From: a virus
Taxonomy: Duplodnaviria > Caudoviricetes
Strand: one strand, 5' to 3'
IMG/VR virus record: IMGVR_UViG_3300022660_000065
Location: 1-64,000 of that record
Length of the DNA: 64,000 nt
The notes under the pieces were generated by a model, which was given only the letters and a program-made list of their open reading frames with translations, ran no database searches and had not been told where the DNA came from. A program made the position numbers and the translations under genes. Positions 7,497 to 63,623 of this stretch are shown here, piece after piece. Positions within the stretch are counted from its first letter, which is position 1. Every line of letters begins with the position of its first letter.

Positions 7497-8140
7497 TAAT
7501 GAAACTGAATTATAATGACATACGATATATAATTAATGAGACTACAAAGTGAATTATTGAAGGTGCTGAGTGGTCTCAAGGTCTTGCATGGGGTGGTGGT
7601 ACACGTGGCCGTAAAAACACAGCAAATCTCCACATCAACCAAGATAAAACTGACAAGGGCAATATCAGTGGTGATATGAATGCAGATACTCGTATGTTTG
7701 GTTCCAAAAATGATATATTATATGGTGATGGAACCATGAACAAAAATTATATGCCGTTAGCTCAAAGAGCAGGTCATTATAATTCTTTGAATAATTTTTA
7801 TCAACAAGTATTAGACTATTGCAACGGTAAAATACAATTATCCGATATTGATTTCCAAAATGCCCCATCTATACAAAGCAAAAATATACAAGAACTTATA
7901 AATAACGGGGTATCAACTGAAGACCTTAAAACTGAAATTTTAAGCCGCATATCACGTGATAATATGGATTCCACTGTAAAACAAATGACGTATAATAGAG
8001 TTCAACAAACAGCGAATCCTGAAAAAGTAAAACGTTATAATACAGGGATTGTTCCCGGCACTAACGTTAAGTTTATTGCATTATACACGATTAATGATTT
8101 TAACTTTAACGATGCAATCAAGCATGGTAAATTAAGGCCA

Positions 8141-8148
8141 AATAATAA
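8141..8148. repeat. 8-bp target site duplication, left (AATAATAA)
   Basis: Identical to 10426-10433. Confidence 0.92.
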
Positions 8149-8176
8149 GGGAACGATATACATGTTTACACTAAAA
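8149..8176 (+). repeat. left terminal inverted repeat
   Basis: GGGAACGATATACATGTTTACACTAAAA. Confidence 0.92.
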
Positions 8177-8192
8177 ATAGCGTAAATAACTG

Positions 8193-8222
8193 AAGTCCAG
8201 TCGAAAAAGACTGGACTTTTTG
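8193..8222 (+). terminator. intrinsic terminator inside IS left end
   Basis: AAGTCCAGTC-gaaaaa-GACTGGACTT followed by a T run; would block read-through into the transposase. Confidence 0.7.
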
Positions 8223-8279
8223 GTAACAACGGGTTAGATTATTGGTATATACTAATAACGAACTTAACCCGTTTGATAT

Positions 8280-9227
8280 ATGAAACTTCAGTTAGCACAT
8301 TTCAACTCACTCATTTCCCTCGTTACTTACTTCAACAACGACAAGCGTTGTCGTGATTTCATTACCGAACAGCGTTGGGGCGGCAATGTGACTTGCCCGT
8401 TCTGTGGATGCACCCATACTTACGTATGCTCCAACGGTGACAATCAGTTCAAGTGTGCAGATTGCAAGAAGCGTTTCTCTTGCCTCGTGGGTACAATCTT
8501 CCACAATACCAAATTGCCACTTCAGAAGTGGTTTATGGCAATGTACCTTATCTCATCACATAAGAAGGGTATCTCATCACACCAGTTGTCTCGTGACCTT
8601 GATGTGACACAGAAAACAGCGTGGTTTATTCTTCATAAGGTACGTACACTCTTTGCTCAGTACGATACTCCTGCTCTTGAGGGTGAGATTGAGTTAGATG
8701 AAATGTACCTTGGCGGTAGAGAGGCTAACAAACATCAGTCAAAGAAGACTGAAGGTACACAGGGACGTTCCACTAAAACGAAGACTCCAATCTTCGGTAT
8801 GGTTCAGCGTGACGGACTCGTTCACGCTCTTAAAGTGTCTGATACCAAGACATCAACCTTGCTCCCTATCATCAAGCAGTTCTGTGCTGAGAACTCTCAT
8901 TTCTTTACAGATGAGTTGAATTCGTACTCTTGCCTTGACAGAGCAGGAATCTCACATAGTGTTATTGAGCACGGCAAGAAGGAGTTCTCAAAGGATGGTA
9001 TCACTACCAATAGCATTGAGGGATTTTGGGGACACTTCAAGCGTATGGTTTTCGGTACATATCATTTCGTTAGCAAGGATTACCTTCAGCGTTATCTTGA
9101 TGAAGCGGTTTACCGCTATAATACACGAAAAGCGGACGAATCCGCCCGCTTTGCTGATATGTTTTGTAAGTCAATAGGTATCGTATCCTATGACGATGTG
9201 AAGATTACATCTATTGCTGTTGCATAG
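8280..9227 (+). CDS. IS1595-family DDE transposase
   Basis: Zinc ribbon CPFCG...CADC, HTH, ELDEMYLGG, FTDELNSY, TNSIEGFWGHFKR. Confidence 0.95.
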   Translation: MKLQLAHFNSLISLVTYFNNDKRCRDFITEQRWGGNVTCPFCGCTHTYVCSNGDNQFKCADCKKRFSCLVGTIFHNTKLPLQKWFMAMYLISSHKKGISSHQLSRDLDVTQKTAWFILHKVRTLFAQYDTPALEGEIELDEMYLGGREANKHQSKKTEGTQGRSTKTKTPIFGMVQRDGLVHALKVSDTKTSTLLPIIKQFCAENSHFFTDELNSYSCLDRAGISHSVIEHGKKEFSKDGITTNSIEGFWGHFKRMVFGTYHFVSKDYLQRYLDEAVYRYNTRKADESARFADMFCKSIGIVSYDDVKITSIAVA

Positions 9228-9963
9228 TTTGTTGATTCTTTTGCTGAATGGTTTGTAACCATTGATTACACAAATTTCGACCAATATTTAACACTTGCTG
9301 AACTGCGTTTCCCGTATTGTATTCAAACGTTTTATTGTACTGTGTTGACGAGGTAATATTAATTGTGCAAATACTATTACCGTTTGTTGTAAATGTGGCA
9401 TCACATGTAAATCCGTTACCATAGAACATATTCAATGTACATTCTATTTGTTTTCCTCTTGAATTATTAAGAATGGAATGTAATTGAGAAATTGCTTGTT
9501 GATTCACACGACTATTCGTTTTTAAGTCAACTCTATATTGTTGCCCCATACTCTCATTCAATACTCGTTTTACAGATTCTGTAATGACTTGTTTGAGTTC
9601 AGATTCTGAGATTCTAATCTTTTGTGGTCGCTTTGATTCGAATTGTACAGGACTACCATTACTTGCAGATGACACCCAATTGGAATTTGTATTCTTAGTT
9701 GTTATTTTCTTAGGAGCAACATTATCTGTAGTTATATTGACTCTCATTTGCGAGGTGTTATGAAGGTTTTTGTTAATCATATCTGAAACCATCTGAAAAA
9801 CTTCTTCCAAATCGCCATCTGTTATCACCCCACCGCCATTCTGTACGGTTCTAAGATGATTCTTCATATATGATGTAATCTGAGAAAATGAAGATGCTAT
9901 ATTAGCGTAAGCACCAGATAACATTTCTTCTTGCTCACTCCATTGTACCCTATTTCTTGCCAT
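9211..9963 (-). CDS. IS passenger protein with internal leader motif
   Basis: 250 aa; residues about 115-137 KIRISESELKQVITESVKRVLNE; GATATTTATA motif upstream (9997-10006). Confidence 0.8.
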   Translation of the reverse strand: MARNRVQWSEQEEMLSGAYANIASSFSQITSYMKNHLRTVQNGGGVITDGDLEEVFQMVSDMINKNLHNTSQMRVNITTDNVAPKKITTKNTNSNWVSSASNGSPVQFESKRPQKIRISESELKQVITESVKRVLNESMGQQYRVDLKTNSRVNQQAISQLHSILNNSRGKQIECTLNMFYGNGFTCDATFTTNGNSICTINITSSTQYNKTFEYNTGNAVQQVLNIGRNLCNQWLQTIQQKNQQTMQQQ

Positions 9964-12222: not shown

Positions 12223-13026
12223 TTAACTTACAGACTCTGCAAAATCTTCAGCCATTTTCTTGGCATCTTCTAATGTTTTGGCAGTCCATTCCTTTCCATT
12301 ATAATGAGCATCACCTTTCTTACATTTGGAACCTACACCAAAACCATATATTGCTCTATGGGACCAACCATACCATTTCTGTTCTTTTTCCGAAAAACCT
12401 ATATTGACGCCACGTTTTTCTATTCCATGCTTTTCAAAAAAATCTTTTGATTCCTTAAGATTTTTAATTTCCACATATTCTGAGAATGGTTTTCTTTGTT
12501 TTAAACCATCATAAAGCCATTTTTTGAATTTATCAACACCTATTTCTGTTATCGCCATAAACCCTTTCCAATCGGGGGTAAAATTTGCTTGATAAGCATC
12601 TTTGGCTTCTTCTTTGGTTTTAAAACCAAGCATCACCTTACTTTCATCAAATGACCCATCTTTTTTCTTTTGGTCAACAACAAACACTTTATCGAAATCA
12701 AGATATTCACCAATGAACACATCAATATGGTCACCATCATATCCTTCAGTATTTGAAAAATATCCGTAATGATTTTTCAAAACATTAAAACCTTTCTTTC
12801 CCTTATCATCAACCCAATATCTTTTTGAGCCCTTAGCATTTTCAATGGAAATCTTAAAACCACGGATTGTGACGTGGCCCATGGCATAATTGCCCGCTTC
12901 TTTCTGAGCAAGTGTGGGGGATTTATCAGCCTTTTCAGCCTCAGCATCAATGCTTTTCATATCATGATACATCTCCAAAAGAAGACGCTGATACTGTGAT
13001 TCCGTTACTATAATTTTCTTTGACAT
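12223..13026 (-). CDS. leader-tagged InPase (inorganic pyrophosphatase-like) domain protein
   Basis: MSKKIIVTESQYQRLLLE leader; PTLAQKEAGNY..GH, ISIEN.KGS, YGY...TEGYDGDHIDVFIG, VFVVDQ, FDESKVMLGF match the InPase domain of phage polyvalent proteins. Confidence 0.8.
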   Translation of the reverse strand: MSKKIIVTESQYQRLLLEMYHDMKSIDAEAEKADKSPTLAQKEAGNYAMGHVTIRGFKISIENAKGSKRYWVDDKGKKGFNVLKNHYGYFSNTEGYDGDHIDVFIGEYLDFDKVFVVDQKKKDGSFDESKVMLGFKTKEEAKDAYQANFTPDWKGFMAITEIGVDKFKKWLYDGLKQRKPFSEYVEIKNLKESKDFFEKHGIEKRGVNIGFSEKEQKWYGWSHRAIYGFGVGSKCKKGDAHYNGKEWTAKTLEDAKKMAEDFAESVS

Positions 13027-13029: not shown

Positions 13030-13416
13030 TTACAAATGATTTACACTAAGGCCTCCATAAAGTCCTATTTTATCTTCATACCAATCTCTCATTACCTGTC
13101 CAAGAAATTTACTTCTTTCGTCTTCATCAACAAACATATTTTGAAATTTGTCAATTAGAAGGTCAAGGAGTTGATAATCATACATGTTCTGAGCAACATT
13201 ACCCGTTTGAGGATTTATCATTGCAACAATACAGGTATTTGACGGCATGCCATCATCACCAATACCTTCGAGGTTCCCTTTCTTGAAATTATTGTCAAGA
13301 TATTCTTTTACAACGAGAACTTTTTCAGGTGAATAAGGATATTGCTTGCCCATTTCCTCCTGAAGCATCATCTTATATAATTGTTTGCATTGTTTCTCAG
13401 TAATTATAATTTTCAT
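13030..13416 (-). CDS. leader-tagged hypothetical protein
   Basis: MKIIITEKQCKQLYKMMLQEE; late motif at 13439-13448. Confidence 0.75.
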   Translation of the reverse strand: MKIIITEKQCKQLYKMMLQEEMGKQYPYSPEKVLVVKEYLDNNFKKGNLEGIGDDGMPSNTCIVAMINPQTGNVAQNMYDYQLLDLLIDKFQNMFVDEDERSKFLGQVMRDWYEDKIGLYGGLSVNHL

Positions 13417-16117: not shown

Positions 16118-16175
16118 AAAAAATCTTATTTTAATATAAATATTTTCTACATTTGGAAAAACCGGGCATTTTTAA

Positions 16176-19804: not shown

Positions 19805-20299
19805 ATGGGGAAGATACAATTAAGTGAAAATCAATTCAATGATTTCATATTAAATATTGTTAAAGAAAGTGTTGAACATTTTTTAGATAAATGGGAGTAT
19901 GATAATCATGATGCGGGTCAGCAAAGATTAATGAATAATTATGATGGCGAGGCCATTGATGAAATGGATTCTACTATTGAACGTTATGGTTGGGAAATTG
20001 CGCCTATTATGAAAACAGTTGTTAGGAATGGTAAAGAATATACTGCCTATATTTGTATCCCTAAAGAAGGCGCACAGAGAATTGGCGATTGGGCTTATGT
20101 TGCAGGTGACTTGAATATGATAGCAAACAAATATGGTATGGTGGTTGAACATGGTCGTTACAAAGGTATTGTAACCAATACCCCTGAGATGGAAGAGAAA
20201 CCTAAGAAAGTGAAAAGAGGGATGGAACCTGAGGCTACTGCCGATAAATCAGGTGCACATTTCTTTATAATCAAACCGCGTTCAGAATCAAATTTTTAA
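19805..20299 (+). CDS. leader-tagged hypothetical protein
   Basis: MGKIQLSENQFNDFILNIVKESVEHFL; late motif at 19777-19786. Confidence 0.75.
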   Translation: MGKIQLSENQFNDFILNIVKESVEHFLDKWEYDNHDAGQQRLMNNYDGEAIDEMDSTIERYGWEIAPIMKTVVRNGKEYTAYICIPKEGAQRIGDWAYVAGDLNMIANKYGMVVEHGRYKGIVTNTPEMEEKPKKVKRGMEPEATADKSGAHFFIIKPRSESNF

Positions 20300-20300
20300 T

Positions 20301-23300
20301 ATGAGTAAACAAGCAGGATATCGTTATAAAGAGGCTATAAACGAGTCTCAGGAATCGGAGTCAATTAAGGCTGCGAGGAAACTTTATATGCAACGCCGTG
20401 GGGTGGATGAGACTGAAGCCGACAGATGGGTTCGTATTGACCTTCGTGGTGATATTCCTGCATTAAGAAGTAAACAAGGCGGAAAATTCATATTTGGTGT
20501 AACAAGAATGTTCCTTGATGGGGAAATCAGAAATGCTGAGACAATTGAAGGCATAAATACTGCTGTTCAATATGCATCATCAGAAGCGCATATAAAGGAG
20601 TATGATAGAAATCTTAATAACCTTTCAGCACAAGAGTTTATAAATAAGTTTGCTGACATGGCAAAAGCAGATTCGCAGGCAGATAGACAAGCACGTTCAC
20701 AAGAAGAATATTTAGGTGATTCCGAATATCAAATAATTCCAATCAACTCATTTGATGAGGCATTACAATATCGGGATTATACAAGTTGGTGTATCACCCG
20801 ATATGAAAATATGTATGATTCATATACTTCCAACGGAGTTGCACAATTTTATTTTTGCCTGAAAAATGGATTTGAAAATATTAAACCTATTGCAGGACAC
20901 AACTGTCCTTTGGATGAATATGGGCTTTCAATGATTGCTGTTTGTGTTGACAAGGATGGACGTTTAAAAACATGTACTTGTAGATGGAACCATGACAAAG
21001 GGGGTAATGACCATGTTATGGGCACAAAACAGATAAGTCAAGTTATCAATAGAAATTTTTATGAGGTTTTTAAACCCAATGATAAATGGGAAATGGCTTT
21101 TCAAAAAATCAAAGCCGATTTAAAAGCTGGTAAAGAATATCATCAGATTTTTGAATTTGTTTCGTCCCCTTCTGAGGGTATTACCAAGGTAAAATATGCA
21201 AAACAATGGAATTTCCTTAATGAAAACCGTGAATTCATATCAGAAACGTGGTTTGACCTTGCAACTGATTTTGCCAACGGTATAGCCGGAATACGAATTG
21301 AAAATAAATGGAATTTCATTAACAAACAAGGTCAATATATTTCACAGGAATGGTTTGCCAATATAAGTTGGGTTGGTGGTTATGATATTGAGACAAAGCA
21401 ACCTATATCTTGGATTCCTGTACAAAAATTTGGGGACCATTCTTGGTATTTTATGAATTATGATGGAAATTTTATGTCTGACCAAGGATGGGAAGAAATT
21501 GATTCGTTTTATAATGGATGGGCAAGAGTTAAATGGAAAACACAATTTAATTACATTAATGCTAATAATGAACTTATTAGTGATGAATGGTTTGTTGAAG
21601 CCAATCCTTTTCGTAATGGGTATGCGTGTGTGTACAGCAATAAAAGAGGATGGAATTGGTTGTCAACTCGCGGTAATCTGATTCTTCCTGACCATTACGC
21701 CGACTATTTAAAAAACTTTGATAAAGATGGCTATGCATTATTCAGACATGATGGTAAATGGGGTGTAATAACAAATGAATGCGAGGTTGTTGTTGAACCG
21801 CAATATCGTCATATAGATGGGGAAAATAGAGGGGTTGCGAGAGTAGAAAATGATGAGGGATTAAACAATTACATTTATATACCTACAGGCGAGATACTTC
21901 TTGATAAATGGGTTTCACAAGGTAGATTACCTCGTTTATATAAAAATTGTATATATGCTGAAGTTTACTGGAATGATAACGACCCATATCCAGAAGATGT
22001 GTTATTGAAAAAAATGACGGGAAGTTTTATGAGTAGATTTAGACACAATGAAAATAAAACAATCATTATATCCGAAAGACAGGCTGAATTACTTAAAGAA
22101 CATATATTGAATGAAGGGCTTTCACAGATAGTATATCATTTTACATCTATTGATAGCCTTTATGGAATTGTTATCAATAATAAATTTTATTTAAAATCAG
22201 GTATTTTTGGTGGTGGCTCTGACCTTGGCGGTGGAAAACGTATGTTTTACCTATCAACCACAAGAAATAGGAACGCCAAAGAAGGCTATTCTTTTATGGG
22301 TAAAACAAGTGTGCGTATAACACTTGATGGTGAAAAACTTGCTCAGAAATATCATGGTCAACCTTTTAATTATTGGGGAGACGATTCTTTAGGCCGTATG
22401 AAATATCTTAATCCTGAAAAAGTAGGAATGCCAAAAAGATGGGGACCTGGAGTAGGCAGACATGCTGAAGATGAAACTGAAGACCGAGTATGGTCTTATA
22501 AAGCAACCATAGAAAATGCTCTTTCGTATATAAAAAGAGTTGATGTCTGTATTTTTAATGAGAATGAAATCACTGAACTTGATACGAGGATAGCAAATAT
22601 GGAATCTCAAGGTAAGACTGAACTTGTTTATGCTTTGAAAAGGAAAAAAGAAACGCTTCTTCAGGAAAATGAAGAAATGAAACGAAAAGTATTTGATTTA
22701 AAACGTTCTTTAAAAGATAGGCTTTTCATATACGATAATGATGAAGCATTTGCATTTGGTGGTAATGGTTATGTTAACCCTGAATGGCTAAATGATTGGT
22801 CTAATGATGAGGGTATTAGGGATAGAATTGCTAATGCTTCCCAACATTCCAACTTCCGAACACAAGCAACGACAAAAAGAGCGTTGGCTGCTGCATTGGC
22901 CATTATGGTAGGGAAAATGTCACCAAAAGATTATAGAAAAGCAATCATCAGGTTTTGTGAACAATATGGTTTTAAAGACCTTATTGATAATGATATATTT
23001 AGAATGGTGACTGATTATATGTGGCGTTATTCAAATGATATTGCTTACATTGCATCGGAAATAAATCCTTCGTATAATCACAATAGGGAAGATATTGCGA
23101 AAATACAAAATATGCTTACACATTGGATGAGGAAAAACGGTTATTCATCATTAAGAGATATTAAACTTTTCGAGAATGAAGAAATAAAAAAAGTTCGTCA
23201 AGGAATGATTGCGTATGAGGAACATGAGCCTGATTATGAAATTGGGTTTGAAGGACCTGATGCATCTGACTATGCGCACATAATAAGTGAGGATGTTAAT

Positions 23301-24103: not shown

Positions 24104-25753
24104 ATGGCTAATTTTGATGCTCAGCTCCAACGCATGCAAAGTCTGATGACTTATGGTGCTGTCAAAGAAAACAAGAAACAGGCAAGTGGCACTATGGAAT
24201 ATCATGCTATTGGTGCTGACGGTAAGGCTTACGGTATAATCCGTGAGAATCAGAAATTCTATATAAAAACAGCTCCGAAACAACACGAAATGGTTGCAGA
24301 GGCTTATGATTATATAGGAGGTTTCAACAACAAGAAACAATATGAGTATACTATGCTCAGCGATGCTAAGAAAAATTTCGACATGAAACTCATGGCAATC
24401 AAGGAATCTTATGCACCTAAAACAAATTTCTCTTTGTCAGATTTTGAGGTGAAAGGAGATGTCATGAGCGAGTGTGGTAAAAATATGATGAACGAAATTG
24501 CTCGTCAGCGGCAGATTATGAATAATGCTGCAGCAATCATGAACGAGGCATCAACAATAGGGTGTTCAAACACAGGAAATCCTGAAGCCCCAAAAACAAC
24601 ATCTTTCAACGCTAAAGTTGGCGAACCATTCGAAGAGACTGCAACAGCAGAACTTGATAAGGATTTCAACAAGACAGCATCTGACCCTGAGAAACAGGGT
24701 GAGCCATTCGGTGATAATGCAAAGACTGAGGAACCGAAAGATGCTGAATACGTACCAAGTGGGTCTGTAGCAAATCAGAAGCCAAAGGGTGGTAAAGTTG
24801 TTAAGGTTGATGAGTCCACCATGAAAGTTTGGGAGATGATGGCAAAACTCGACAAGAATTTCAATATCAATGAGGCTTGTGAGGAGTGGGGCTCATGTGG
24901 TCTTCCTTCTGATGAGGGTGTTGGTAGCCCTGAAGGACATCTTATGGAAGATGAGGAAATAGCAGGCCTTGATGATGAGGGAATGGAATTTGCGGAAGAT
25001 GAATTTGAATCTGTAGAGGAAGAGATGCCTGAAATAGAAGGTGAAGAAGTTCCTGAAGCAGAGGAAGAATTCGATGAAGATGAATTTGATTTCGAAGAAT
25101 TCGATGATGAGAATGCTGAAGGCGCAGAGCCTGAAGAGCCTGAAGAGGCTGAGGGTGCTGAAGAGGCTGAGGCAGACATGGAAAACCCCGAATCAAGCGA
25201 ACTTGACGAACTCCGTGCTGAAATAGAATCTCTTAAGGCACAGCTCGCAGAACTTAAAGGCGAGGAACCTGAAATGGGTGAAGAACCGGTAGAAGATGAC
25301 CTTGGAATTGAGGAACCTAATTTTGATGAAACTGAAATGGATGGCGCTGATGAATTTGCAGAAGAGCCTGAGATGGAAGACGAGCCTGCAGGTGAAGAAG
25401 TTGAAGAAACATTTGACCCTGAAATAGATGCTAACTATGAGGATGAACCTGATTTCGGACTTGATGAGGCGAGGAAGGCTGAACTTGAGTCGATAATCGA
25501 AGGACTTACTCAGAGATATCTTAACGAAGACAAACTTAATGTTTTTGGAAAACATCCGGGTTACAGAAAGAAGCCAATGACACTCCCTGCAACAGGTTCT
25601 GATGGTGACGAGAAAACAACTGATTGGAATGATGAGTCTGTTTATTCAGAACAGCCGTTCGGAGAGAAAATCGGAGACAGCGCACCATTTGAAAAGGCTA
25701 TCGAAAAAATTGTTGATAGCGTAATGGAAGGAATTACTAAAAAAAAAATCTAA
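24104..25753 (+). CDS. acidic head core/scaffold-like protein
   Basis: Long E/D/P-rich tract; in head gene cluster; late motif 24063-24071 favours ATG at 24104. Confidence 0.65.
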   Translation: MANFDAQLQRMQSLMTYGAVKENKKQASGTMEYHAIGADGKAYGIIRENQKFYIKTAPKQHEMVAEAYDYIGGFNNKKQYEYTMLSDAKKNFDMKLMAIKESYAPKTNFSLSDFEVKGDVMSECGKNMMNEIARQRQIMNNAAAIMNEASTIGCSNTGNPEAPKTTSFNAKVGEPFEETATAELDKDFNKTASDPEKQGEPFGDNAKTEEPKDAEYVPSGSVANQKPKGGKVVKVDESTMKVWEMMAKLDKNFNINEACEEWGSCGLPSDEGVGSPEGHLMEDEEIAGLDDEGMEFAEDEFESVEEEMPEIEGEEVPEAEEEFDEDEFDFEEFDDENAEGAEPEEPEEAEGAEEAEADMENPESSELDELRAEIESLKAQLAELKGEEPEMGEEPVEDDLGIEEPNFDETEMDGADEFAEEPEMEDEPAGEEVEETFDPEIDANYEDEPDFGLDEARKAELESIIEGLTQRYLNEDKLNVFGKHPGYRKKPMTLPATGSDGDEKTTDWNDESVYSEQPFGEKIGDSAPFEKAIEKIVDSVMEGITKKKI

Positions 25754-26317: not shown

Positions 26318-26641
26318 ATGGCTAAAACAATCTATATAACAGAAGCACAGTTAAATACGCTTAAAAAATATATTCAAGAAGAAGGAAACTCATTGGAGAT
26401 TACTGTAACCCCTGATGAAGGTGAGACTGTGGATGATGCAATTGCAAATTCTAAGGAGAATATTGAACAGGTGGCAGGCTCTCAAGCCGCTGCTGATACC
26501 AAATTCACTTTAAAGGGTAATGCGTTCGAAGGAAAGACTTATACTAAAAAAGAGATTGAAAAAAGCCGTCTTCATAAGACATTGAAGGAAGGTAAAAAAT
26601 ATACAAAAGAAGAATTCACAAAACATATCCTTAACAAATGA
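26318..26641 (+). CDS. leader-tagged small head-cluster protein
   Basis: MAKTIYITEAQLNTLKKYIQEE; late motif 26289-26299. Confidence 0.75.
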   Translation: MAKTIYITEAQLNTLKKYIQEEGNSLEITVTPDEGETVDDAIANSKENIEQVAGSQAAADTKFTLKGNAFEGKTYTKKEIEKSRLHKTLKEGKKYTKEEFTKHILNK

Positions 26642-27816
26642 GTAAAACAATCATCATAAACGAAAAGATATTGAACTCCCCTTTATTAAAGGAGGGGATT
26701 CTTCTTAATGAACTCCCTGATGATATCCGTCAACAATTAAAAAACAACGATACATCATTGGGCTCAAGCCCGGCATTTCCTGATGAATATGGCGATTCTT
26801 TCGATACTAAACTCACATTGAAACGTTTCGAGGAAACTAAGAAAATGCTTGAACGTATTGGGAAAATTGAAGGATGTGACAGTATTGAAAATGCATTGCC
26901 AATGCTTATTGAAAAATGTAAGAAAATAGAAGAACCAATTAAGGCTAATCTCGAAAAAATTGCATATAATTTTATTGTGGAACATTTTAATGTCCCTGAA
27001 GGTTCCATTAATTTTTCCACAGAACTTAAAGATAATCTTGAAGGCATTGGTATGAACGTAAGGGTTCAATCAGAGGATACTGATTTCGAGTTTGAAAATT
27101 CCGTTCATAAAAAAGAACTTAATGACGATATTAGAAAACGCAGGGTTATCAATGCACTCATGACCGGTGCGGCATTGAGGATATCTTCAAATATTAAACT
27201 GTACATCGCCGAGATATATGATTTGGAACCCAAACTCCCTGACTTATATCGAAAGATATTGGCATTGAATGATTATCTTCTTTTTACTAACATAAATGAT
27301 GTACCTGAGGATAAAACAAATCAATTAGGTATGTCTAAAATAACAATTGGTAATGAAGAGACGAAATCAGAGGTTGTTGTTGAGGCTTGCATTTTTCCAA
27401 TTCTTATATATGAAGAGGTGAGAGCATTTTTAGAACTTTCTGCAGCACATGGTCTTCCAATGAAAAAAGAAGAAGCGAATTATGTTATGTCCAAAGCAGA
27501 TTATCTTCAGGCAGAACCTTGGGATATGAGGCTCGGTCCTGCCATGTGGGATAAATTGTCTGATATGATGGGTGATGTTGATTCCAAACTAATTCCTTAT
27601 GTTTTTATGGAAATCTGTAAGTTAAAACCATCTAAATTCAACCTTCTTATGCAGGAAGTGCTTAGTGGAACAAAGAAAGGACATAGGGTTATACAAAATA
27701 TTGTACAATATTGCACCGAAAATTACGAATACGATGATTTTCAAAATCGCATGAAAAAAATGAATGCTGATATTGCAATAATCAACGATGAATATATAAG
27801 GCCTGAGGAGTTATAG
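26638..27816 (+). CDS. leader-tagged head-cluster protein
   Basis: MSKTIIINEKILNSPLLKE; ATGA overlap with the upstream gene. Confidence 0.75.
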   Translation: MSKTIIINEKILNSPLLKEGILLNELPDDIRQQLKNNDTSLGSSPAFPDEYGDSFDTKLTLKRFEETKKMLERIGKIEGCDSIENALPMLIEKCKKIEEPIKANLEKIAYNFIVEHFNVPEGSINFSTELKDNLEGIGMNVRVQSEDTDFEFENSVHKKELNDDIRKRRVINALMTGAALRISSNIKLYIAEIYDLEPKLPDLYRKILALNDYLLFTNINDVPEDKTNQLGMSKITIGNEETKSEVVVEACIFPILIYEEVRAFLELSAAHGLPMKKEEANYVMSKADYLQAEPWDMRLGPAMWDKLSDMMGDVDSKLIPYVFMEICKLKPSKFNLLMQEVLSGTKKGHRVIQNIVQYCTENYEYDDFQNRMKKMNADIAIINDEYIRPEEL

Positions 27817-27867: not shown

Positions 27868-28596
27868 ATGTTGAAATCAAATCTTACTGAGATAACAAAA
27901 AATAAAGTTGGAACCGGTCTTCTTTTGGAAAACGATGGCTACATTTCAATGTCTGAAGGAGAGAATAAAAAACTATTCGAATCTGTTAAGAAGATAAATG
28001 AGGGACTTAATGACGGTGAGTTTTACTGCCCTTATCCTTTTGTCGTACATGCTGTGTTCCAAAAATTTGGTATTGAAAACGCTAACGGGCGTATATATCC
28101 GGAAGATGTACTTAAAAAGCAAGTGGCGATATATCAGCAAAAGATAAACGAGAAACGCGCTTATGGGGAAACAAATCATCCGGATTCAAGAACATCAGTA
28201 AATCTTGACCTTGTTTCAATGAATATCCTTGAACTTCATTGGGAAGGACAGACACTTGTCGGACAACTTGAAGTAATCACAACACCGGGTTTTAGAAAGT
28301 ATGGTATCGCAAGTTCAACAGGAGACCTTACAGCAAATTTACTTCTTCAGGGCCTTAAAATAGGCGTGTCTTCAAGAGGTGTTGGTTCTGTTGAACATAA
28401 ATTTGGAAAGTACATAGTGGGGGACGATTATGAAATCATTTGTTGGGATTATGTTAGTGACCCAAGCACCAGAAATGCATGGGTTGACATCGAAAAAGAA
28501 AAATTAACCCCATATCTTGAAAATACGGAAAATAAAAAACCAATTCTTTCAGAGAATACAAAATTGGATAAATTTAGTAAATGGTTGAATGATTAA
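27868..28596 (+). CDS. prohead protease (T4 gp21-like)
   Basis: NANGRIYP, GETNHP, GVSSRGVGS, WDYVSDPS. Confidence 0.9.
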   Translation: MLKSNLTEITKNKVGTGLLLENDGYISMSEGENKKLFESVKKINEGLNDGEFYCPYPFVVHAVFQKFGIENANGRIYPEDVLKKQVAIYQQKINEKRAYGETNHPDSRTSVNLDLVSMNILELHWEGQTLVGQLEVITTPGFRKYGIASSTGDLTANLLLQGLKIGVSSRGVGSVEHKFGKYIVGDDYEIICWDYVSDPSTRNAWVDIEKEKLTPYLENTENKKPILSENTKLDKFSKWLND

Positions 28597-28696: not shown

Positions 28697-30109
28697 ATGA
28701 GTACAACTAATAAAAATAACAAAAAGACAGTTTCAGAGGCTCTCCTTGAAATGGATAAGGTGTCCAAAGCCCTCAAGGAAGAAAGCAAGGCTACTCTGTC
28801 TTCACTTCTCTCAGAGGCAATCAAAGAATATCTTAATGAAGAGATTGGTGCTGATGATGAGGAAGAGAAGGATGATGAATATTCAATCGAAGATGACGCT
28901 GCTGAGAATGAGAATGATGCTGACGAAACCACAGTAGATGATGAGGGTGCTGAAGAGGAAATACCTGCTGAGGAACCTGAGGCTAATGCTGAGGACCTGA
29001 ATGAACCTGAGGAAGGTGATGGTGAAGAATGGTCAGGACTTGACGACTTCAAAGTAGATGATGAAACATACGATTTGACTACCGGCGAGAAAGGCGATGA
29101 AACACTCGTAAAGGTTTATAAACTCCTTAAGGATACAGACCAAGTAGTTGTCAAACAAGAGGGTGACAGCGTATCATTGAAGGATAATGAAACTGGTGCT
29201 GAGTATGTCATAAAGACCGGATGCGAAGAAGAGGCTCCTGTCGCTGAAGAAAACGAATTTGAGTTTGAATTTGATGACGAGGAAGAGACTCCTGAAGCAG
29301 AAGGCGAATTTAATAACGACGAAGAAGACGAAAAAGTAATGGAAGGAAAAGAAATGGTATACGAGATTGACCTCGGATACACAGACAACTACCAAGATAA
29401 GGACCCAATTCAAGGACTTAGCAACAACGAGCCTTCTAAGTCGGGAAAATCTTGGCACAAAGGCGTTCCAACAGGAACTGAAAAACCTTGGGCTTCTAAA
29501 GGTGATGATGCACCGTTTGAGGAAAAAGCCGCATGTAATGAAGAGGAATTGCTCACCGACATCGCTGCAGATGATATTGCAAGCGGAGAGGAGATGCCTG
29601 TAGAGGAAGGAACTAATGTAACCCTCCCTAACAGAAGAAAAAAAAGCAAGAGCCATTCAATGCAGCAGAAGGATTATCCAAAGGTTGCACATCATGATTC
29701 ACAGAACGGAGACTATAAGGCTCTTGAGGAAATGGTGAAGAAACTTCAGAAGGAAAACAAGGAAATGAAGGCTATGATTCCTCAGATTAAGAAAGCGATG
29801 AATGAAAGTGTTCTTGTTAACTACAAACTTGGACGAATCGTTAAACTTATTTCTGAGAACGCAACAACAAGAAAAGAAAAGATTGATATCATCAATCGTT
29901 TCAATGAAAATGCTAAATCAATCAGCGAAACAAAGAGCCTCTACGAATCAATCAAGAGAGAACTTAACGCTTCAGCAAATTCAAAGAAACCTGTTCTTGA
30001 AAACAACGGAATCAAGGCTGAAAAACCACAGGTCGTTGAAACAACAGTATATCAGTCGAACGACCTTAAGGAAATGCTTGACTTCATGAAGAGAATGGAG
30101 AAATGCTAA
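28697..30109 (+). CDS. prohead core/scaffold protein (gp22-like position)
   Basis: Acidic middle, C-terminal coiled coil; between protease and capsid genes. Confidence 0.7.
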   Translation: MSTTNKNNKKTVSEALLEMDKVSKALKEESKATLSSLLSEAIKEYLNEEIGADDEEEKDDEYSIEDDAAENENDADETTVDDEGAEEEIPAEEPEANAEDLNEPEEGDGEEWSGLDDFKVDDETYDLTTGEKGDETLVKVYKLLKDTDQVVVKQEGDSVSLKDNETGAEYVIKTGCEEEAPVAEENEFEFEFDDEEETPEAEGEFNNDEEDEKVMEGKEMVYEIDLGYTDNYQDKDPIQGLSNNEPSKSGKSWHKGVPTGTEKPWASKGDDAPFEEKAACNEEELLTDIAADDIASGEEMPVEEGTNVTLPNRRKKSKSHSMQQKDYPKVAHHDSQNGDYKALEEMVKKLQKENKEMKAMIPQIKKAMNESVLVNYKLGRIVKLISENATTRKEKIDIINRFNENAKSISETKSLYESIKRELNASANSKKPVLENNGIKAEKPQVVETTVYQSNDLKEMLDFMKRMEKC

Positions 30110-30156: not shown

Positions 30157-31977
30157 ATGGCTAACGAATTTTTAAGAAGTGGTCAGTTCGAAAGCATTGA
30201 ACTGAACGAACAGAAGAAAGTTAGAGGAATGATTAACGAGCGTTGGGACAAGCTCGGACTTACTGCAGGTCTCGACGGATATATCAAAGATAATATCGCA
30301 GCCCTCTACGAGAATGAGGTTAAATACCTCCTTAATGAAGCAACTGCTTCTGACAACAGCGGCTCATTCGAGACTGTTGTATTCCCTATCATCCGCCGTG
30401 TATTCAGCAAGCTCCTTGCTAACGACCTCGTGTCAGTACAGGCAATGAACCTTCCTATCGGAAAACTTTTCTTCATCCTCCCTGTAACTTCAGAGCGTCA
30501 GTGGAGCGCAGAGGAAATGGCTGATGGTGTAACAGGTTCACACTACGGACTTATGGGTTATGAAAGAACTGACCGTAAGGATGGTTCACAGCACAACCGC
30601 TTCTATCTTCCTGATGAGGCTGTTAACGGTGTTGACAGAACTAACCCTGAGGTAACTCAGTACATGGAGAAGTCTCTTTATGACCTTTTCTACAACGATT
30701 TCCTTTATGATAACTCTAAGGGTAAAATCACTATCAAGGTTTCTGATAAGGTAACTCCTAAGAAATGGGATAAGGGTGTCCTCGCTGATGCTGCTGAAGA
30801 TTTCTCAGATGTTCCTGTATTCGGTCTTGACGGTACTGTACGTAACGTAATCCTTGAGGTAGGTGGTTTCGCATCTTACAACGCAGGTAAACTTACAGGT
30901 CCTGACGGAAACGAAATGGATACTGAGGCATTCCTCGCATCTCTTAAGGTTATCGCTCCTGCTATCGACGGTGGTGAGAACGCTTCTTCTTTCGCAGAAG
31001 GTGAGTCTCTTCAGTTCCGCGTTGTAACTCAGAAGTATGGTAAGGGCATCGTAGAGTATGGCAACCCTTGCTCTGCAGAAGGTAAGATTCTCCTTGAGGT
31101 TGACCTTTCTAAGCCAGTTATCAAGCAGCAGGCAACTGTTGACGGTTATGTAGGTGTTCCTGCAGCAGCTCTCGCAGGTAAGAAGTTCCAGGTTGCTTGG
31201 GCTCAGTACGATTCACTCGAACTTGAGACTGAGATTGGTGAGGTTTCTTTCAAACTCGATTCAGTAACTGTATCAGTTGAGGAACGCAAACTTCGTGCTA
31301 CTTGGTCTCCTGAACTCGCACAGGACGTTGCAGCATTCCATAACATCGACGCTGAGGCTGAGCTTACCGCTATCCTCTCAGAGCAGATTGCAGCAGAGAT
31401 TGACCGTGAGATTCTCCGTGACCTCCGTAAACTCGCTCCATGGCAGGCTCGTTTCGATGTAAACGGTTGGAGACGTATGGCAGGTTATTCAACTAACTAT
31501 ACTCAGAAAGACTGGAATCAGGAACTTATCACTAAGGTAAATCAGATTTCTGCTCAGATTCAGAAGTCAACTCTCCGTGGTGGTGCTAACTGGCTCGTAG
31601 TTTCTTCAGAGATTAATGCTCTCCTTAACAACCTTGAGTATTTCCACGTAACTGACGCTTCAGCTGAGTCTGATACTTATAACATGGGTATCGAGCGCGT
31701 TGGTTCACTTCAGGGACGTTATCAGGTATATGTTGACCCATATGCTCCATCTTATTCACTTATCATGGGACACAAGGGTAAGTCACTCCTTGACACAGGA
31801 TACATCTATGCACCATACGTGCCAATGCAGTTGACTCCAACAATGTATAATCCTTTCAACTTTGCACCTGTTAAGGGAATCATGACGAGGTACGCAAAGA
31901 AATGTGTTAACAACAAATTTTATGGAGGCATAAAGGTCGATGGCCTTGTAACATGGAACATTAACGAACTTCGCTAA
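30157..31977 (+). CDS. major capsid protein (T4 gp23-like)
   Basis: PIIRRVF...LVSVQAMNLPIG, SWSPE-like ATWSPELAQD, AEIDREI, GYIYAPYVP, GIMTRY; strongly biased codons. Confidence 0.95.
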   Translation: MANEFLRSGQFESIELNEQKKVRGMINERWDKLGLTAGLDGYIKDNIAALYENEVKYLLNEATASDNSGSFETVVFPIIRRVFSKLLANDLVSVQAMNLPIGKLFFILPVTSERQWSAEEMADGVTGSHYGLMGYERTDRKDGSQHNRFYLPDEAVNGVDRTNPEVTQYMEKSLYDLFYNDFLYDNSKGKITIKVSDKVTPKKWDKGVLADAAEDFSDVPVFGLDGTVRNVILEVGGFASYNAGKLTGPDGNEMDTEAFLASLKVIAPAIDGGENASSFAEGESLQFRVVTQKYGKGIVEYGNPCSAEGKILLEVDLSKPVIKQQATVDGYVGVPAAALAGKKFQVAWAQYDSLELETEIGEVSFKLDSVTVSVEERKLRATWSPELAQDVAAFHNIDAEAELTAILSEQIAAEIDREILRDLRKLAPWQARFDVNGWRRMAGYSTNYTQKDWNQELITKVNQISAQIQKSTLRGGANWLVVSSEINALLNNLEYFHVTDASAESDTYNMGIERVGSLQGRYQVYVDPYAPSYSLIMGHKGKSLLDTGYIYAPYVPMQLTPTMYNPFNFAPVKGIMTRYAKKCVNNKFYGGIKVDGLVTWNINELR

Positions 31978-34216: not shown

Positions 34217-34495
34217 TTACCATCGTTTGGAATCAATTTGCTTCATAAAATTTGAAAGGAATTGTCTGTATTTTAGGGACACATCACCAAGATTATCAAG
34301 TTGCTCTTGAGGGATAACATCCAAATAGTCGTTTATTAAATAACGTGTAATTCTATTAATTTCAGTTAATTCATTCTGTACACCAGTATTCCCCCATGGC
34401 ATATACTCTTCACTTTCTTTCAATACTTTCTTTACTGATTCAGAAATAACTTTTTTCAAGTCAGATTCTGTTAATCTTATTGTGTTTTTCTTCAT
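34217..34495 (-). CDS. leader-tagged small protein
   Basis: MKKNTIRLTESDLKKVISESVKKVLKE; stop abuts the transposase remnant stop. Confidence 0.8.
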   Translation of the reverse strand: MKKNTIRLTESDLKKVISESVKKVLKESEEYMPWGNTGVQNELTEINRITRYLINDYLDVIPQEQLDNLGDVSLKYRQFLSNFMKQIDSKRW

Positions 34496-44999: not shown

Positions 45000-46436
45000 A
45001 TGAGACTTACCCAAAATGATATAAGATATATAATTAACGAATCATCGAAAAGAATCCTTAATGAAATTAGCATTAAGGATTCCTATTTGCGTTTCTATCA
45101 AGATATAAAACAAACTGTTTTCAATTTAATTGTTGGAAAACTTAATGGAGGTACTTTAAACTATAATAACAATGCTGTTTTATTACCCGAAACAAAATGG
45201 GCTTTGCAGATATATAGAAAAAGTGGAGATATTGAAAAAGAAAGATTCCTTGAAGATATATACAAATTAAAAAATTCCGATGGGACAGGTTATCTTGACA
45301 TATTCATTCGTTTAAAAAACAGAAGAATGATATCAGGACCTGATGCAGACCTTAACAAATATAAAACAATCGGCGAACTTGGAAGATTTGTTAATTCTTT
45401 TGATTTAGATACTGTAATGGATAGGACTAAGGGTGAGATGTCAAATGCCGTTAATTCAGCAGCAAACGATATTGAAATCCCCTATGAGGATGAGGTTTGG
45501 AAAGTTGTTATTCCAAAAACATATGAGGCGTCATGCTATTGGGGAAAGGGTAGTGAATGGTGCACCGCAACAAGAGAAACTGATAAATATTACCGTACAT
45601 ATTCAAGCCAAGGCCCGCTTTATATAAACATTAATAAAACAAATTCAGCCGAAAAATATCAGTTTCATTTCGAATCAAAACAATTCATGGATATAGACGA
45701 TGTTGAAATTGATACCCCTATTTTTACTACTATAGGCGCTACCGAGGGTCTTATTAACTTTTACTCCAAAATACGTTCTGCAGATGATATAATGAATATG
45801 AAATATGAGCCACTTGGTGATGGGTGTTGGTTAATAGAAAAGAAGGGGAAATATAATATAATTAATAAAGAGCAATATCCGTTGTGCGATTTATGGTTTG
45901 ATGATATGGGCTACTTCTATGGTGGATACATGAAAATTCGTATCGGCGCAGCGATAAACTATATTAATACCCAAGGAGATATATTAAGTGAAGAATGGTT
46001 TGATACCTGCACCAATTTTTCAAGGGGATGGGCAGGAGTCGGTAAGAAAATAGGAAATCGGACATTGTGGAATGTACTGTTTGATGATGGAACAATCGGT
46101 TGTGACTTCATGTGGTTTGATAACATTATAGGAATGAATCATTTATTGGGAAAATGTGAAAAAGATGGTATATTTCTTAATTTATATAAAGACAAACGAC
46201 TTGTTGGTGCGAATAAAAACCATATAATAGCAATCAATTCTCTTGAGGAATTTTACACATATCGTAAATATATTTTTAAGGAGTATGTTAGAATGCGTAA
46301 AGAGGCTGAGGAAATGATGATGAACAGAAATTTCCAAAATCTCGAATTTAAAGAAGTGTATACTACGGAGTACATACGTAGGTCTTTGGGAATCGCCCCT
46401 GACTACCATATTAAACAAAACGATTTAGAAAAATAA
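45000..46436 (+). CDS. leader-tagged protein with WC-motif domain and WG repeats
   Basis: MRLTQNDIRYIINESSKRILNE; ASCYWGKGSEWCTA...YYRTY..QGPLY; WFD..F..GW repeats. Confidence 0.75.
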   Translation: MRLTQNDIRYIINESSKRILNEISIKDSYLRFYQDIKQTVFNLIVGKLNGGTLNYNNNAVLLPETKWALQIYRKSGDIEKERFLEDIYKLKNSDGTGYLDIFIRLKNRRMISGPDADLNKYKTIGELGRFVNSFDLDTVMDRTKGEMSNAVNSAANDIEIPYEDEVWKVVIPKTYEASCYWGKGSEWCTATRETDKYYRTYSSQGPLYININKTNSAEKYQFHFESKQFMDIDDVEIDTPIFTTIGATEGLINFYSKIRSADDIMNMKYEPLGDGCWLIEKKGKYNIINKEQYPLCDLWFDDMGYFYGGYMKIRIGAAINYINTQGDILSEEWFDTCTNFSRGWAGVGKKIGNRTLWNVLFDDGTIGCDFMWFDNIIGMNHLLGKCEKDGIFLNLYKDKRLVGANKNHIIAINSLEEFYTYRKYIFKEYVRMRKEAEEMMMNRNFQNLEFKEVYTTEYIRRSLGIAPDYHIKQNDLEK

Positions 46437-60966: not shown

Positions 60967-61560
60967 CTTATTCTTCTGTTCATTAACATTTCCTTTATAT
61001 TCGAGAACTGCTGAAAAAACATTTCCCGCATGGTCTGTTAACATGATTTTTCCTTCTTTTAGGCGCACCCCTTTAATTACACTTTCATTAAGCGATTTCA
61101 GTTTTCTATCAAGACATTCATCAACAATAGATTTAAACCATTCGCGGTCAAGACCAAAACCATCAGGCTGAGATACAACCCCTTCATTGATAGCCCTTTT
61201 TCCCCTTTCCTGACGTTCATTTTCAGCAATTATTGCTTCCATTCCCGCATAAAAGTTTTTTTCACGTTGATAATCAGGATTAAGACAATCAACATTGATT
61301 TCGGTTTCCATAAATGATTTTTTTATAACATCAGGAAGTCCTGATTCACTAATGGACCTACCTCCACCTTGTTGTTTACCTGTTATCTGTGAAAGGTCAT
61401 ATCCCGCTTCATAAAGTTGGCCTTCAGTCATATAAGTTTCAGGTGCCGCATCGAAGTTAACCGAAGAAATACCCTGCCCGCGATATTCGCTCATTTTTTT
61501 CTCCATATCAGGGCTACACAATGCCTGTGCCCTTCGTAATGATTCCGCATTAAATCCCAT
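60955..61560 (-). CDS. hypothetical protein
   Basis: 201 aa in late-motif operon. Confidence 0.7.
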   Translation of the reverse strand: MGFNAESLRRAQALCSPDMEKKMSEYRGQGISSVNFDAAPETYMTEGQLYEAGYDLSQITGKQQGGGRSISESGLPDVIKKSFMETEINVDCLNPDYQREKNFYAGMEAIIAENERQERGKRAINEGVVSQPDGFGLDREWFKSIVDECLDRKLKSLNESVIKGVRLKEGKIMLTDHAGNVFSAVLEYKGNVNEQKNKKRG

Positions 61561-61581
61561 TTTTAAAATATTTTCTTTTTA

Positions 61582-62505
61582 TTAAGAAAGTCCCCATTCT
61601 TTACGTATTGCTTCAATGTCATCATTCGAGAGTTCATATTCAACGCCTCTATTGTTAACATCCGCTTTAGTTATCGGGGATGAACCTGCAGGTTTAATTG
61701 TGCTACTTCCCACAGGGCTTGAATTTCCAATATCTGTTTTTGTAATTGGCTTTGTCTGTGGCGCATTAATTTTATCTGCAGTCTTTCCTTTAATAATATT
61801 AAAGAGTTCTTGCTCATTGTCAAGCCTTTCCCCACGTTTCTTTGCTTGAGCAAGTTTTCTACGGGCATTATCCTTATCAATTTGCTTCATCATTTCAGGA
61901 GAAACCATTCGTTTATTAGGAGTATTAACCTGAGCCTTGATTCCTTGTAATGGGTCTTCATGTTGAGGTACATATTTCATGAGGTCCTGAACTATTTCTT
62001 CCGACCCATATTGTTCGCCTTGTTTCAATGCACTATCAATTTCCTTTTCTCTTTCTTTTGGAGAAACATCGGCCTTTGTTATAGGTTCATTACCAATCTT
62101 AGGAAACTGTACTGTTTTAGGTCGCCCTTTAATATCAGCAATGTTATATACAATACTCATTGATTCGTCTCCATTTTCATTAAAGCCATTCAAAACTTCA
62201 CCCTTAAATGTCTTTTTTAATGGACGCCATCTTTTAATTCTGTCAAGGCGGAAAAATTTCCATGCAGGGACTTTCGTCTTGGTATCACCATACGGTTCAA
62301 ATGCTCTTATGACAGGATTCCCCGATTTTGTGAGACCATAAGCCACAGGATATATGATGCGACGACCTGTTGCAACCGGCTCCCCCCCCGAATTATAACG
62401 TATTTCCACCTGAGTTAGGTTGTTAATAGCGTCATTCACGTTGGACACTGTTGCAATACTTTCATTAATGAAAGCCTCTTCCAATAGTCTCTTGAAATAA
62501 TCCAT
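61582..62505 (-). CDS. WYL-domain protein without HTH
   Basis: VEIRY...RRIIYP...G...IRAFE...WKFFRLDRIK; C-terminal PITK(A/T)D x3. Confidence 0.7.
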   Translation of the reverse strand: MDYFKRLLEEAFINESIATVSNVNDAINNLTQVEIRYNSGGEPVATGRRIIYPVAYGLTKSGNPVIRAFEPYGDTKTKVPAWKFFRLDRIKRWRPLKKTFKGEVLNGFNENGDESMSIVYNIADIKGRPKTVQFPKIGNEPITKADVSPKEREKEIDSALKQGEQYGSEEIVQDLMKYVPQHEDPLQGIKAQVNTPNKRMVSPEMMKQIDKDNARRKLAQAKKRGERLDNEQELFNIIKGKTADKINAPQTKPITKTDIGNSSPVGSSTIKPAGSSPITKADVNNRGVEYELSNDDIEAIRKEWGLS

Positions 62506-62512
62506 AATAAAA

Positions 62513-62914
62513 TTACTTTATGAAAAACTGTCCGTCTTCGATATTTGCTGAAGTATCAATACTATTTAAACCGTATTGATTATCCTTATCATAAATGTTA
62601 ATTGTCTGAAGCCATTTACGGCCACCATCAACACCTGGACGCCCATTGATGTCATATGCACCGCCACCATTCTCAGTGTCAATTTGCGGGCTAATGCGAT
62701 TTTTAGTCAATTCATTATATCCCATAGGTACGGTATGCTGATGCCCGCCTGAACGGGTACCTTTTCCAAGTGGCTTGGTTACATCACCCTCATGCCATAC
62801 AGCAGTATCATGGTCGGGACCATAAGGATTAGTTTTCTTAATATCGTTTCTAACAAGTTCATGCTCATTTCTGCGCTCGAAACCGATTTTTTCGAGATTT
62901 GACTGTTTAGCCAT
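62513..62914 (-). CDS. hypothetical late protein
   Basis: 133 aa. Confidence 0.7.
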   Translation of the reverse strand: MAKQSNLEKIGFERRNEHELVRNDIKKTNPYGPDHDTAVWHEGDVTKPLGKGTRSGGHQHTVPMGYNELTKNRISPQIDTENGGGAYDINGRPGVDGGRKWLQTINIYDKDNQYGLNSIDTSANIEDGQFFIK

Positions 62915-62933
62915 TTCCTATACTATTTTATTT

Positions 62934-63623
62934 TTATTCTTGGTAAGTTATACCATTATTATTCTTTTTTGTATGGGCCTGCCCATTACCTGAATTTTTA
63001 GTACCCCCTGCTTTCTGATAGACATTTTCAAAACCCATCGCAGCGCGGTTTGCCTTATCGCTTTCCACAGCACCCCTATATGATTTCAATGAGTTCTGAA
63101 CCCATTGTTCCATTTTTTCGCCACCAATGAGATTATAGTTGTTAATATCCTTTTTACCTTCTCTTTCAAAAAAACTTTTCAGTTGTTTCATCTCATCATA
63201 TTTGATATTCCTCTGATTGATAAGGTTATTAAGACGGTCCCAACCTGCAGCATTTTTATCCCCGTTATACATCCTGCAATTATTCTGTAATTGAGAATAT
63301 AATTCTTCCGGAATGGTCCAAGTCCTACCCTGACCCATAGGGACATTCTCACTCAATGTTTTTTTTTTCTCTGCACTGCAATTCATTACAAGAGGCTGAT
63401 GACGTGAAGTACCATTAAAGCCATATGTCTTAGATAAAGTCCTTGCATAATCATCACCCGTCATTGGGTTACCATCCTTTTTCTTGGATAATTTACCACT
63501 AACAGAAACCTCAGTATTTCCATTGAATTCTTTAAAATCCCCTTCCATATTATCAAGATATGAAGAATCAACACCGAGTATTTCATTTAATTGTCTTTCA
63601 GATATGATAATCGTTTTTCCCAT
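62934..63623 (-). CDS. leader-tagged hypothetical protein
   Basis: MGKTIIISERQLNEIL; late motif 63643-63652. Confidence 0.75.
   Translation of the reverse strand: MGKTIIISERQLNEILGVDSSYLDNMEGDFKEFNGNTEVSVSGKLSKKKDGNPMTGDDYARTLSKTYGFNGTSRHQPLVMNCSAEKKKTLSENVPMGQGRTWTIPEELYSQLQNNCRMYNGDKNAAGWDRLNNLINQRNIKYDEMKQLKSFFEREGKKDINNYNLIGGEKMEQWVQNSLKSYRGAVESDKANRAAMGFENVYQKAGGTKNSGNGQAHTKKNNNGITYQE

Follow-up and report, generated by a model that had tools for sequence, protein, structure and literature searches.

A peptide of about 28 residues recurs in otherwise unrelated proteins encoded by IMG/VR virus record IMGVR_UViG_3300022660_000065, a contig of 88,186 bp whose first 64 kb make up the stretch analyzed here (the window). 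This peptide (the tag) is probably a head-loading propeptide, that is, a long-form functional analogue of the capsid-targeting sequence (CTS) of phage T4, and we infer that the proteins bearing it are packaged, cleaved, and injected. The head-loading reading is favored because tags are biased toward N-termini and selected as peptides, some of them lie at the positions of T4 gp67 and gp68 beside an S77 prohead protease, a late-type motif precedes tag genes in two genomes, the tag holds two (I/L/V)-x-E sites with likeness among carriers ending after the second, anti-restriction and anti-defence cargo is found in late head operons, and the protease co-occurs with the tag in near-complete genomes. 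A modular capsid-targeting signal had been proposed by a sequence-only reading of this DNA, and that proposal is partly supported. It also extrapolates in stating that the signal turns every domain fused to it into an injected effector, as tagged genes are also found on IS1595 elements in host chromosomes.

Recurrence and Anatomy of the Tag

All 14 places at which the sequence-only reading had located the motif carry it, as judged from a profile search and the translations. N-terminal tags start at 13026, 13416, 34495, 35023, and 63623 on the minus strand and at 19805, 26318, 26638, 35116, and 45000 on the plus strand. Internal tags are found in 9211-9963 (from 9630, minus), 20301-24047 (from 22056, plus), and 36587-37396 (from 36929, plus). 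Two extra copies lie on the same contig outside the window (69640, minus; 71859, plus), and the contig totals 16 tag carriers in 88 kb, with 12 N-terminal carriers. The copies in the window are as follows.

34406..34495, minus: most canonical N-terminal tag (profile E 5e-12), on the 92-aa protein 34217-34495
34934..35023, minus: N-terminal tag of the 168-aa protein 34517-35023, with the late-type motif (see below) 34 nucleotides upstream
35116..35205, plus: N-terminal tag (profile) of protein 35116-36570, which has a Gly/Ala-rich hydrophobic segment
36929..37018, plus: internal tag of 36587-37396, between a conserved N-domain (WYRGH type, ART-like as a lead only) and a swappable C-domain
45000..45089, plus: N-terminal tag (profile) of the WG-repeat protein 45000-46436
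26318..26407, plus: N-terminal tag of the 107-aa protein 26318-26641, at the T4 gp67 position (profile, synteny)
26638..26727, plus: N-terminal tag of the 392-aa protein 26638-27816, at the T4 gp68 position; the orthologue in the closest complete relative is tagged too
19805..19900, plus: N-terminal tag with a 4-residue insertion (profile), on the 164-aa protein 19805-20299
22056..22130, plus: internal tag (profile) of the 1248-aa multi-domain protein 20301-24047 (WG repeats, YHFT domain, nucleotidyltransferase)
12937..13026, minus: N-terminal tag (profile) of the InPase and Tad6 protein 12223-13026
13327..13416, minus: N-terminal tag of the 128-aa protein 13030-13416, an operon head with the late-type motif
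63534..63623, minus: N-terminal tag (first half; profile) of the 229-aa protein 62934-63623
9541..9630, minus: internal tag of 9211-9963, a passenger gene convergent to an IS1595 transposase
7499..8185, plus: tag gene with an in-frame TGA at 7550-7552

In the last of these, the TGA breaks the tag after 17 codons, at a K/R position where the paralogue at 36929 has AGA, and the same frame continues to 8185. The TGA probably reflects a nonsense mutation, a pseudogene, or an assembly error; it may alternatively be read through.

The sequence-only reading had suggested scanning the genome and its relatives with a profile of the leader, and such a scan recovered copies on the contig and in relatives. 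A profile from 11 copies found four left-out copies at E-values from 1e-4 to 0.1, and the best match to reversed sequences had an E-value of 0.5. When the genes of 80 related loci were scanned, 53 hits (E<=0.01) fell within their first 40 residues vs. 1 in control residues 46-85, and in these phages the tag nearly always lies at residue 1-10. Chance or low complexity as the source of the motif is ruled out by the reversed-sequence and internal-segment controls. The conserved residues are written with many synonymous codons, including both TTR and CTN for Leu and both TCN and AGY for Ser, and identical residues share the same codon in 46% of cases. Since synonymous codons are scrambled, even between the non-interconvertible Leu and Ser families, selection on the tag is at the level of the peptide and not of DNA or RNA.

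Canonical copies read K-x-I-R-L-T-E-S-D-L, followed by a helix with the end E-S-V-K-(R/K)-(V/I)-L-x-E, and a second group mainly retains the first half (M-x-K-x-I-I-I-T-E-x-Q). In an alignment of 29 canonical copies, I6, E10, L13, S20, V21, and E27 each have a conservation of at least 90%. Where the cargo is unrelated, likeness between carriers ends directly past E27, the Glu of the second L-x-E. Counted from the strand to the final Glu, the tag is about 22 residues long. Counted as motif presence only, i.e., as candidate cleavage sites, an (I/L/V)-x-E ending at residues 5-14 (mode 9) is present in 73 of the 77 N-terminal tags of relatives vs. 27% of other N-termini, and a second one at residues 18-36 (mode 26) in 70 of the 77 vs. 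41%.

Pfam gave no match to the tag in the carriers scanned, PHROGs gave weak matches only (e.g., phrog_6420 at positions 4-31, E 0.002-0.05), and a PDB profile search with the tag returned designed helical repeats only. In Flavobacterium phage immuto, Microcystis phage Mel-JY01, and the huge phage LR756508, no significant tag was detected by a profile scan, and a related-loci search with the 92-aa protein yielded nothing confirmable.

In G001, the closest complete relative (363 kb), about 25 proteins are tagged, most of them with the tag from residue 1-6, and about 20 are N-terminal carriers. The canonical profile matches 9,324 representative metagenomic protein clusters at E<=1e-3 and 1,848 at E<=1e-10. 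The top matches mostly have two to four tags each, about 115 residues apart, and 178 top-match proteins hold 143 N-terminal, 175 internal, and 23 C-terminal copies. The position claimed for the leader holds as an N-terminal bias, with copies also often internal or C-terminal in multi-tag proteins. An AlphaFold single-sequence model of one two-tag protein (P0030) had a pLDDT of 48 and was uninformative on tag-tag pairing. Internal copies in the top metagenomic proteins usually keep the Met and follow a conserved (N/D)-E-S-(K/R)-N stretch. This arrangement suggests fused former genes or internal starts, and the stretch is possibly a further cleavage site.

The Head Module and the Late-Type Motif

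The conserved structural genes of the window are those of a T4-like head module.

24104..25753, plus: portal-position protein (synteny with T4, immuto, and G001)
27868..28596, plus: prohead protease, Peptidase_S77 (T4 gp21 type), with a conserved N-terminal L-x-E
28697..30109, plus: scaffold-position protein of 470 aa, with a weak likeness between its N-terminal region and the tag's second half
30157..31977, plus: gp23-type major capsid protein (MCP; homology)

Portal, acidic protein, tagged 26318, tagged 26638, S77 protease, scaffold, and MCP follow one another in an order that parallels T4 genes 20-67-68-21-22-23, and immuto and Mel-JY01 share the layout. In G001, the same head order is kept, with tags on the 26638 orthologue and on genes between protease and scaffold. 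Even distant relatives, with an MCP 54-63% identical, carry variant tags on small genes directly flanking the protease. The N-terminal L-x-E of the protease is near-invariant among relatives and resembles LIE-9 at the N-terminus of T4 gp21 (PMC9026906). The S77 protease was found in 11 of the 16 tag-bearing IMG/VR contigs and in five of the six that are at least 90% complete. In two relatives, S77 matches are split in two inside open frames of 609 and 386 aa (G009 125480-127138 and G013 222089-222991), and these genes may bear an intein or another insert. Genes of the HNH/homing-endonuclease type are also seen inside the head module, at 32175-34079 in the window and at 259596-260951 and 261653-262624 in G001, where they flank the protease on both sides. 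The MCP N-terminus allowed no usable inference of a cleavage site. The scaffold is not singled out by its density of (I/L)-x-E (2.3 per 100 aa vs. a mean of 1.6). The densest protein on the contig is a 304-aa late protein at 40716-41630, with 5.3 per 100 aa vs. the same mean, which could be a heavily processed core or scaffold-like protein.

Tag genes and structural genes are also linked by an upstream motif. On the contig, 18 of 20 occurrences of CTATTTAT are upstream of genes, and the extended form (A/G)(A/C)CTATTTAT is found almost only at gene starts, among them those of the portal, protease, scaffold, and sheath genes. The claim that tagged units follow this late-type motif was confirmed, as it is present at 11 of 12 tag genes or their operon heads; in G001 it stands before 9/19 tag genes vs. 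56/423 others (p=5e-4). The nrdD, clpX, helicase, and glycosyltransferase genes, said to be without leader, indeed have neither the tag nor CTATTTAT. Tag genes and structural genes share a promoter-like motif, which may point to late-type expression.

Cargo and Modularity

The carriers had been credited with diverse cargo, and this was borne out for InPase (together with Tad6), a nucleotidyltransferase (NTase; NTP_transf_2), WG repeats, and a Gly/Ala-rich hydrophobic stretch. InPase and Tad6, the latter a ThsB-binding Thoeris inhibitor family, are joined in 12223-13026, which also has PHROG matches to polyvalent, DarB-like, and minor head proteins. WG_beta_rep and NTP_transf_2 domains are found in 20301-24047, whose gene adjoins the portal gene, and WG repeats in 45000-46436; the hydrophobic stretch was read directly in the translation of 35104-36570. 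A PRTase was not confirmed, as no carrier matched that family, and the ART-like assignment of the 36587-37396 N-domain is a weak lead only. Pfam reported no peptidase domain in the carriers scanned, where remote versions are possible. With 17 homologues, AlphaFold modeled the C-domain of 36587-37396 at pLDDT 82-92 and its N-domain and tag helix at low confidence, and a structure search with this model gave no clear match (best Z 5.1).

Cargo in relatives includes ArdA, SAM lyase/DUF3293, NUDIX, InPase, DUF3008, and DUF4258. One arrangement is a tag fused to ArdA at G001 263402-264160 (L101:3402-4160, minus), whose start overlaps the stop of a gp68-like head gene, two genes from the protease. 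Encoding anti-restriction proteins in a late head operon would be sensible only if these proteins travel into the next cell. Virion packaging has been predicted for InPase of this subtype (PMC5512222).

The tag also marks borders at which domains are exchanged. In 20301-24047, the domain that comes after the internal tag has 40% identity to one that stands behind an N-terminal tag in a G001 gene. The N-domain and tag of 36587-37396 are common to its homologues, which then continue into at least five unrelated C-termini, and one homologue consists of the tag and the same C-domain alone. Six carriers (InPase, 13030, the large portal-adjacent protein, 26638, 62934, and 68756) have tagged orthologues in G001; the ten contig carriers without a tagged orthologue in G001 are located between conserved structural genes. 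Two G001 tagged genes (L088:16098-16775 and L088:6440-7216, both minus), one of the DUF3293/SAM-lyase type, directly follow tRNA-like 3' ends. Similarly, T4 ipI adjoins a tRNA cluster.

Head Loading and Its Alternatives

From the evidence above, we infer that tagged proteins are docked, cleaved, retained in the virion, and injected. The tag would form a short strand (consensus I-R-L-T-E) and an N-capped amphipathic helix ending in (I/V)-(L/I)-x-E, through which its carrier would dock into the scaffold core while the prohead is being assembled. The gp21-type serine protease would next cleave on the C-terminal side of the conserved Glu residues, at about residues 9-10 and 26-27, so that cargo would be freed within the head and would exit with the DNA at the next infection. 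Multi-tag proteins would be cut into separate modules.

Several observations weigh against this reading. The middle Glu of the tag (I-x-E-S) is not conserved, and a picture with three cleavage sites is thereby reduced to two. About half of the copies in the top metagenomic matches are internal or C-terminal, unlike a strict N-terminal signal. The helix half of the tag resembles generic idealised helices, and the count of 9,324 clusters may be inflated at its low-score end, because designed helices were the sole PDB matches. A tblastn search with the tag and a two-tag protein against 50,697 phage records found the tag in none of them, and no cultured phage carries it; tag profiles scored at most 5 bits on T4 IPI-III, gp67, gp68, gp21, gp22, and gp24 (CTS of MKTYQEFIAE type). 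One tag-bearing contig rated 95% complete is without the protease. Finally, the exact tag occurs at 27 loci within islands of low guanine-cytosine (GC) content in Prevotellaceae/Bacteroidales genomes, isolates included, and at 15 of the 27 an IS1595 transposase or its remnant lies immediately downstream in convergent orientation.

Among the alternatives, the tag could be a core-assembly helix only, tagged proteins being prohead core or scaffold filler, like T4 gp67, gp68, and gp22, that is degraded and expelled, with enzyme cargo incidental. This would explain why conserved carriers occupy the gp67/gp68 positions, why many multi-tag metagenomic proteins are acidic, low-complexity, and core-protein-like, and why the start of the scaffold protein is weakly similar to the tag's second half. 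However, ArdA, SAM lyase, Tad6, InPase, NUDIX, and NTase would hardly be made late as disposable filler, and the accessory carriers are hypervariable between relatives, as are the T4 ip loci. We regard this explanation as fairly unlikely.

The chromosomal loci call for separate consideration, as the layout of the islands recurs in the window at 8280-9963, where the tagged passenger lies next to the following gene.

8280..9227, plus: IS1595-family transposase, convergent with the tagged passenger 9211-9963

At 11 of the 27 chromosomal loci, a GATATTTAT-type motif is found upstream of the tagged gene. Because the islands have a phage-like GC content and keep the late-type motif in these 11 cases, a phage origin of the islands is suggested. 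One may go further and regard the tag and the late-promoter motif as a portable cassette that IS1595 moves between jumbo phages and Prevotellaceae chromosomes. It would stay silent until such a phage infects; the late machinery of that phage would then transcribe it, and its product would be loaded into progeny heads, either as a host-resident reservoir of injectable anti-defence cargo or as a host 'Trojan horse' that sabotages progeny virions. This scenario is speculative and, in our estimate, doubtful.

The same loci could instead mean that the tag serves a transposon- or host-linked function unrelated to capsids, e.g., as a half ribbon-helix-helix (RHH)-like dimerising or regulatory element of IS1595 passengers, and that phages merely acquired the cassettes. 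Weak sub-threshold matches to Omega_Repress (one) and to a PHROG named 'DNA binding protein' also fit such a role, as do the 15 loci with IS1595 immediately downstream and their counterpart in the window. However, most phage copies have no link to an insertion sequence, including those in conserved head-module genes, and the islands resemble phage in GC content and in the late-type motif upstream at 11 loci. No RHH protein appeared in the PDB profile search, and the tag, at about 22 residues, is too short for a full RHH fold (strand, helix A, and helix B, about 45 residues). This function is therefore quite unlikely.

It is very unlikely that the tag is recognized by a phage AAA+ unfoldase for timed degradation or unfolding. 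A ClpX-like (4172-5257) and a split ClpC-like (13818-18059) ATPase are both encoded on the contig, the ClpC-like gene is kept in G001 close to the head module, and the Met-basic-hydrophobic starts of the tags loosely resemble ClpX N-degrons. However, the ClpX-like gene has no counterpart in G001, with its roughly 25 tagged proteins, and this explanation leaves the (I/L/V)-x-E pattern and the head-module synteny unexplained. Conservation at the nucleotide level, as a recombination or translation-initiation cassette with a functionless peptide, would fit the swapping of cargo exactly at the tag and the Met and conserved upstream stretch often retained by internal copies, but it is largely refuted and scarcely credible, given the scrambled codons, even among Leu and Ser families, and the diverged window copies in which the pattern of hydrophobic residues and Glu persists; recombination at the tag is possibly a secondary consequence.

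Comparison with Known Systems

The CTS of T4 IPI/IPII/IPIII and Alt was reportedly treated by Mullaney & Black in 1996 and by Repoila et al. in 1994. Like the CTS, the tag is a short N-terminal peptide on otherwise unrelated proteins of one phage and ends in (L/I)-x-E. A gp21-type protease in the genome, a late-type expression signal, anti-restriction cargo, and core proteins at the gp67/gp68 positions that also begin with such peptides complete the likeness. In the T4 CTS, a change of the Glu to Asp reportedly blocks processing. The T4 internal proteins have a common N-terminal leader only and are injected anti-restriction proteins (PMC12373910; PMC3012670), and T4 Alt is trimmed at both ends (PMC9026906). 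The six conserved and ten variable carriers here recall T-even phages, in which core proteins are conserved and ip loci hypervariable (PMC3012670; PMC12373910). In contrast, the CTS has 10-19 residues and three to four carriers, whereas the tag has about 28 residues with two conserved sites and 16 carriers in 88 kb. Also unlike the CTS, copies here are often internal or C-terminal, some proteins are multi-tagged, cargo is enzymatic (InPase, NTase, NUDIX, SAM lyase), and copies ride IS1595 in host chromosomes. Since tag profiles reach at most 5 bits on T4 proteins, the tag is, as far as profiles can tell, an analogue and no demonstrable homologue of the CTS.

In phiKZ, 201phi2-1, and SPN3US, many head, inner-body, and ejection proteins are cut after Glu by a T4-related protease, sometimes at multiple sites, and the propeptides of this type are long, have no shared sequence, and are cleaved at (S/A/G)-x-E (PMC5694885; PMC7411985; PMC10052503). 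The jumbo phage described here would likewise load many proteins into its head, but with one conserved recurring tag and an aliphatic P3. Phage polyvalent proteins join InPase, NTase, ART-type, and WG-type modules in late proteins for which packaging and injection are predicted (Iyer et al., 2017, PMC5512222), and their processing by built-in MPTase peptidase domains was proposed (PMC5512222). At least two conflict-related domains are similarly combined per late-type polypeptide in 20301-24047 (1248 aa) and 12223-13026. Unlike in polyvalent proteins, modules here are separated by a shared tag, at which the head protease would cut, and the majority of carriers are single-domain. Encapsulin cargo-loading peptides are short transferable terminal peptides that direct diverse cargo into an HK97-fold shell, and they are usually C-terminal and uncleaved, with neither protease nor DNA co-packaging. 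Their resemblance to the tag lies only in how they work.

If head loading is correct, the tag offers a sequence handle for head-carried, DNA-delivered proteins of giant phages that infect gut and rumen Bacteroidota and are uncultured. Tagged clusters number at least 1,848 and possibly as many as about 9,300, most of them without known function, and those that can be recognised belong to the anti-restriction or anti-defence type (ArdA, SAM lyase, Tad6, InPase). The principle of T4 internal proteins would then extend to a far larger and more modular repertoire, providing a candidate list of new anti-defence proteins and a longer two-site targeting peptide for phage protein delivery. The IS1595-borne chromosomal copies raise the separate question of cassette traffic between phage and host.

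The Phage and Its Host

Among cultured phages, no MCP is more than 37-41% identical to the gp23-type MCP of the window (30157-31977). IMG/VR contains more than 597 relatives of it, and the nearest, at 64-69% identity, lie on complete genomes of 295-413 kb. For these reasons, the contig is taken to be a fragment of a distant T4-like jumbo phage. Exact tag copies are present in genomes of rumen Prevotella/Segatella and other Bacteroidales. Early-looking genes (clpX-like and helicase; upstream regions in 4172-7038) have TAnnTTTG-type boxes, which are typical of Bacteroidota promoters and unlike the CTATTTAT units. The tag copies and these boxes point to rumen Prevotella/Segatella-type Bacteroidales as the host group. 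At the far end of the contig, a region that looked free of open frames to the gene caller holds a 901-codon open frame (85483-88185, plus), and since it runs off the end, the contig ends inside a large gene.

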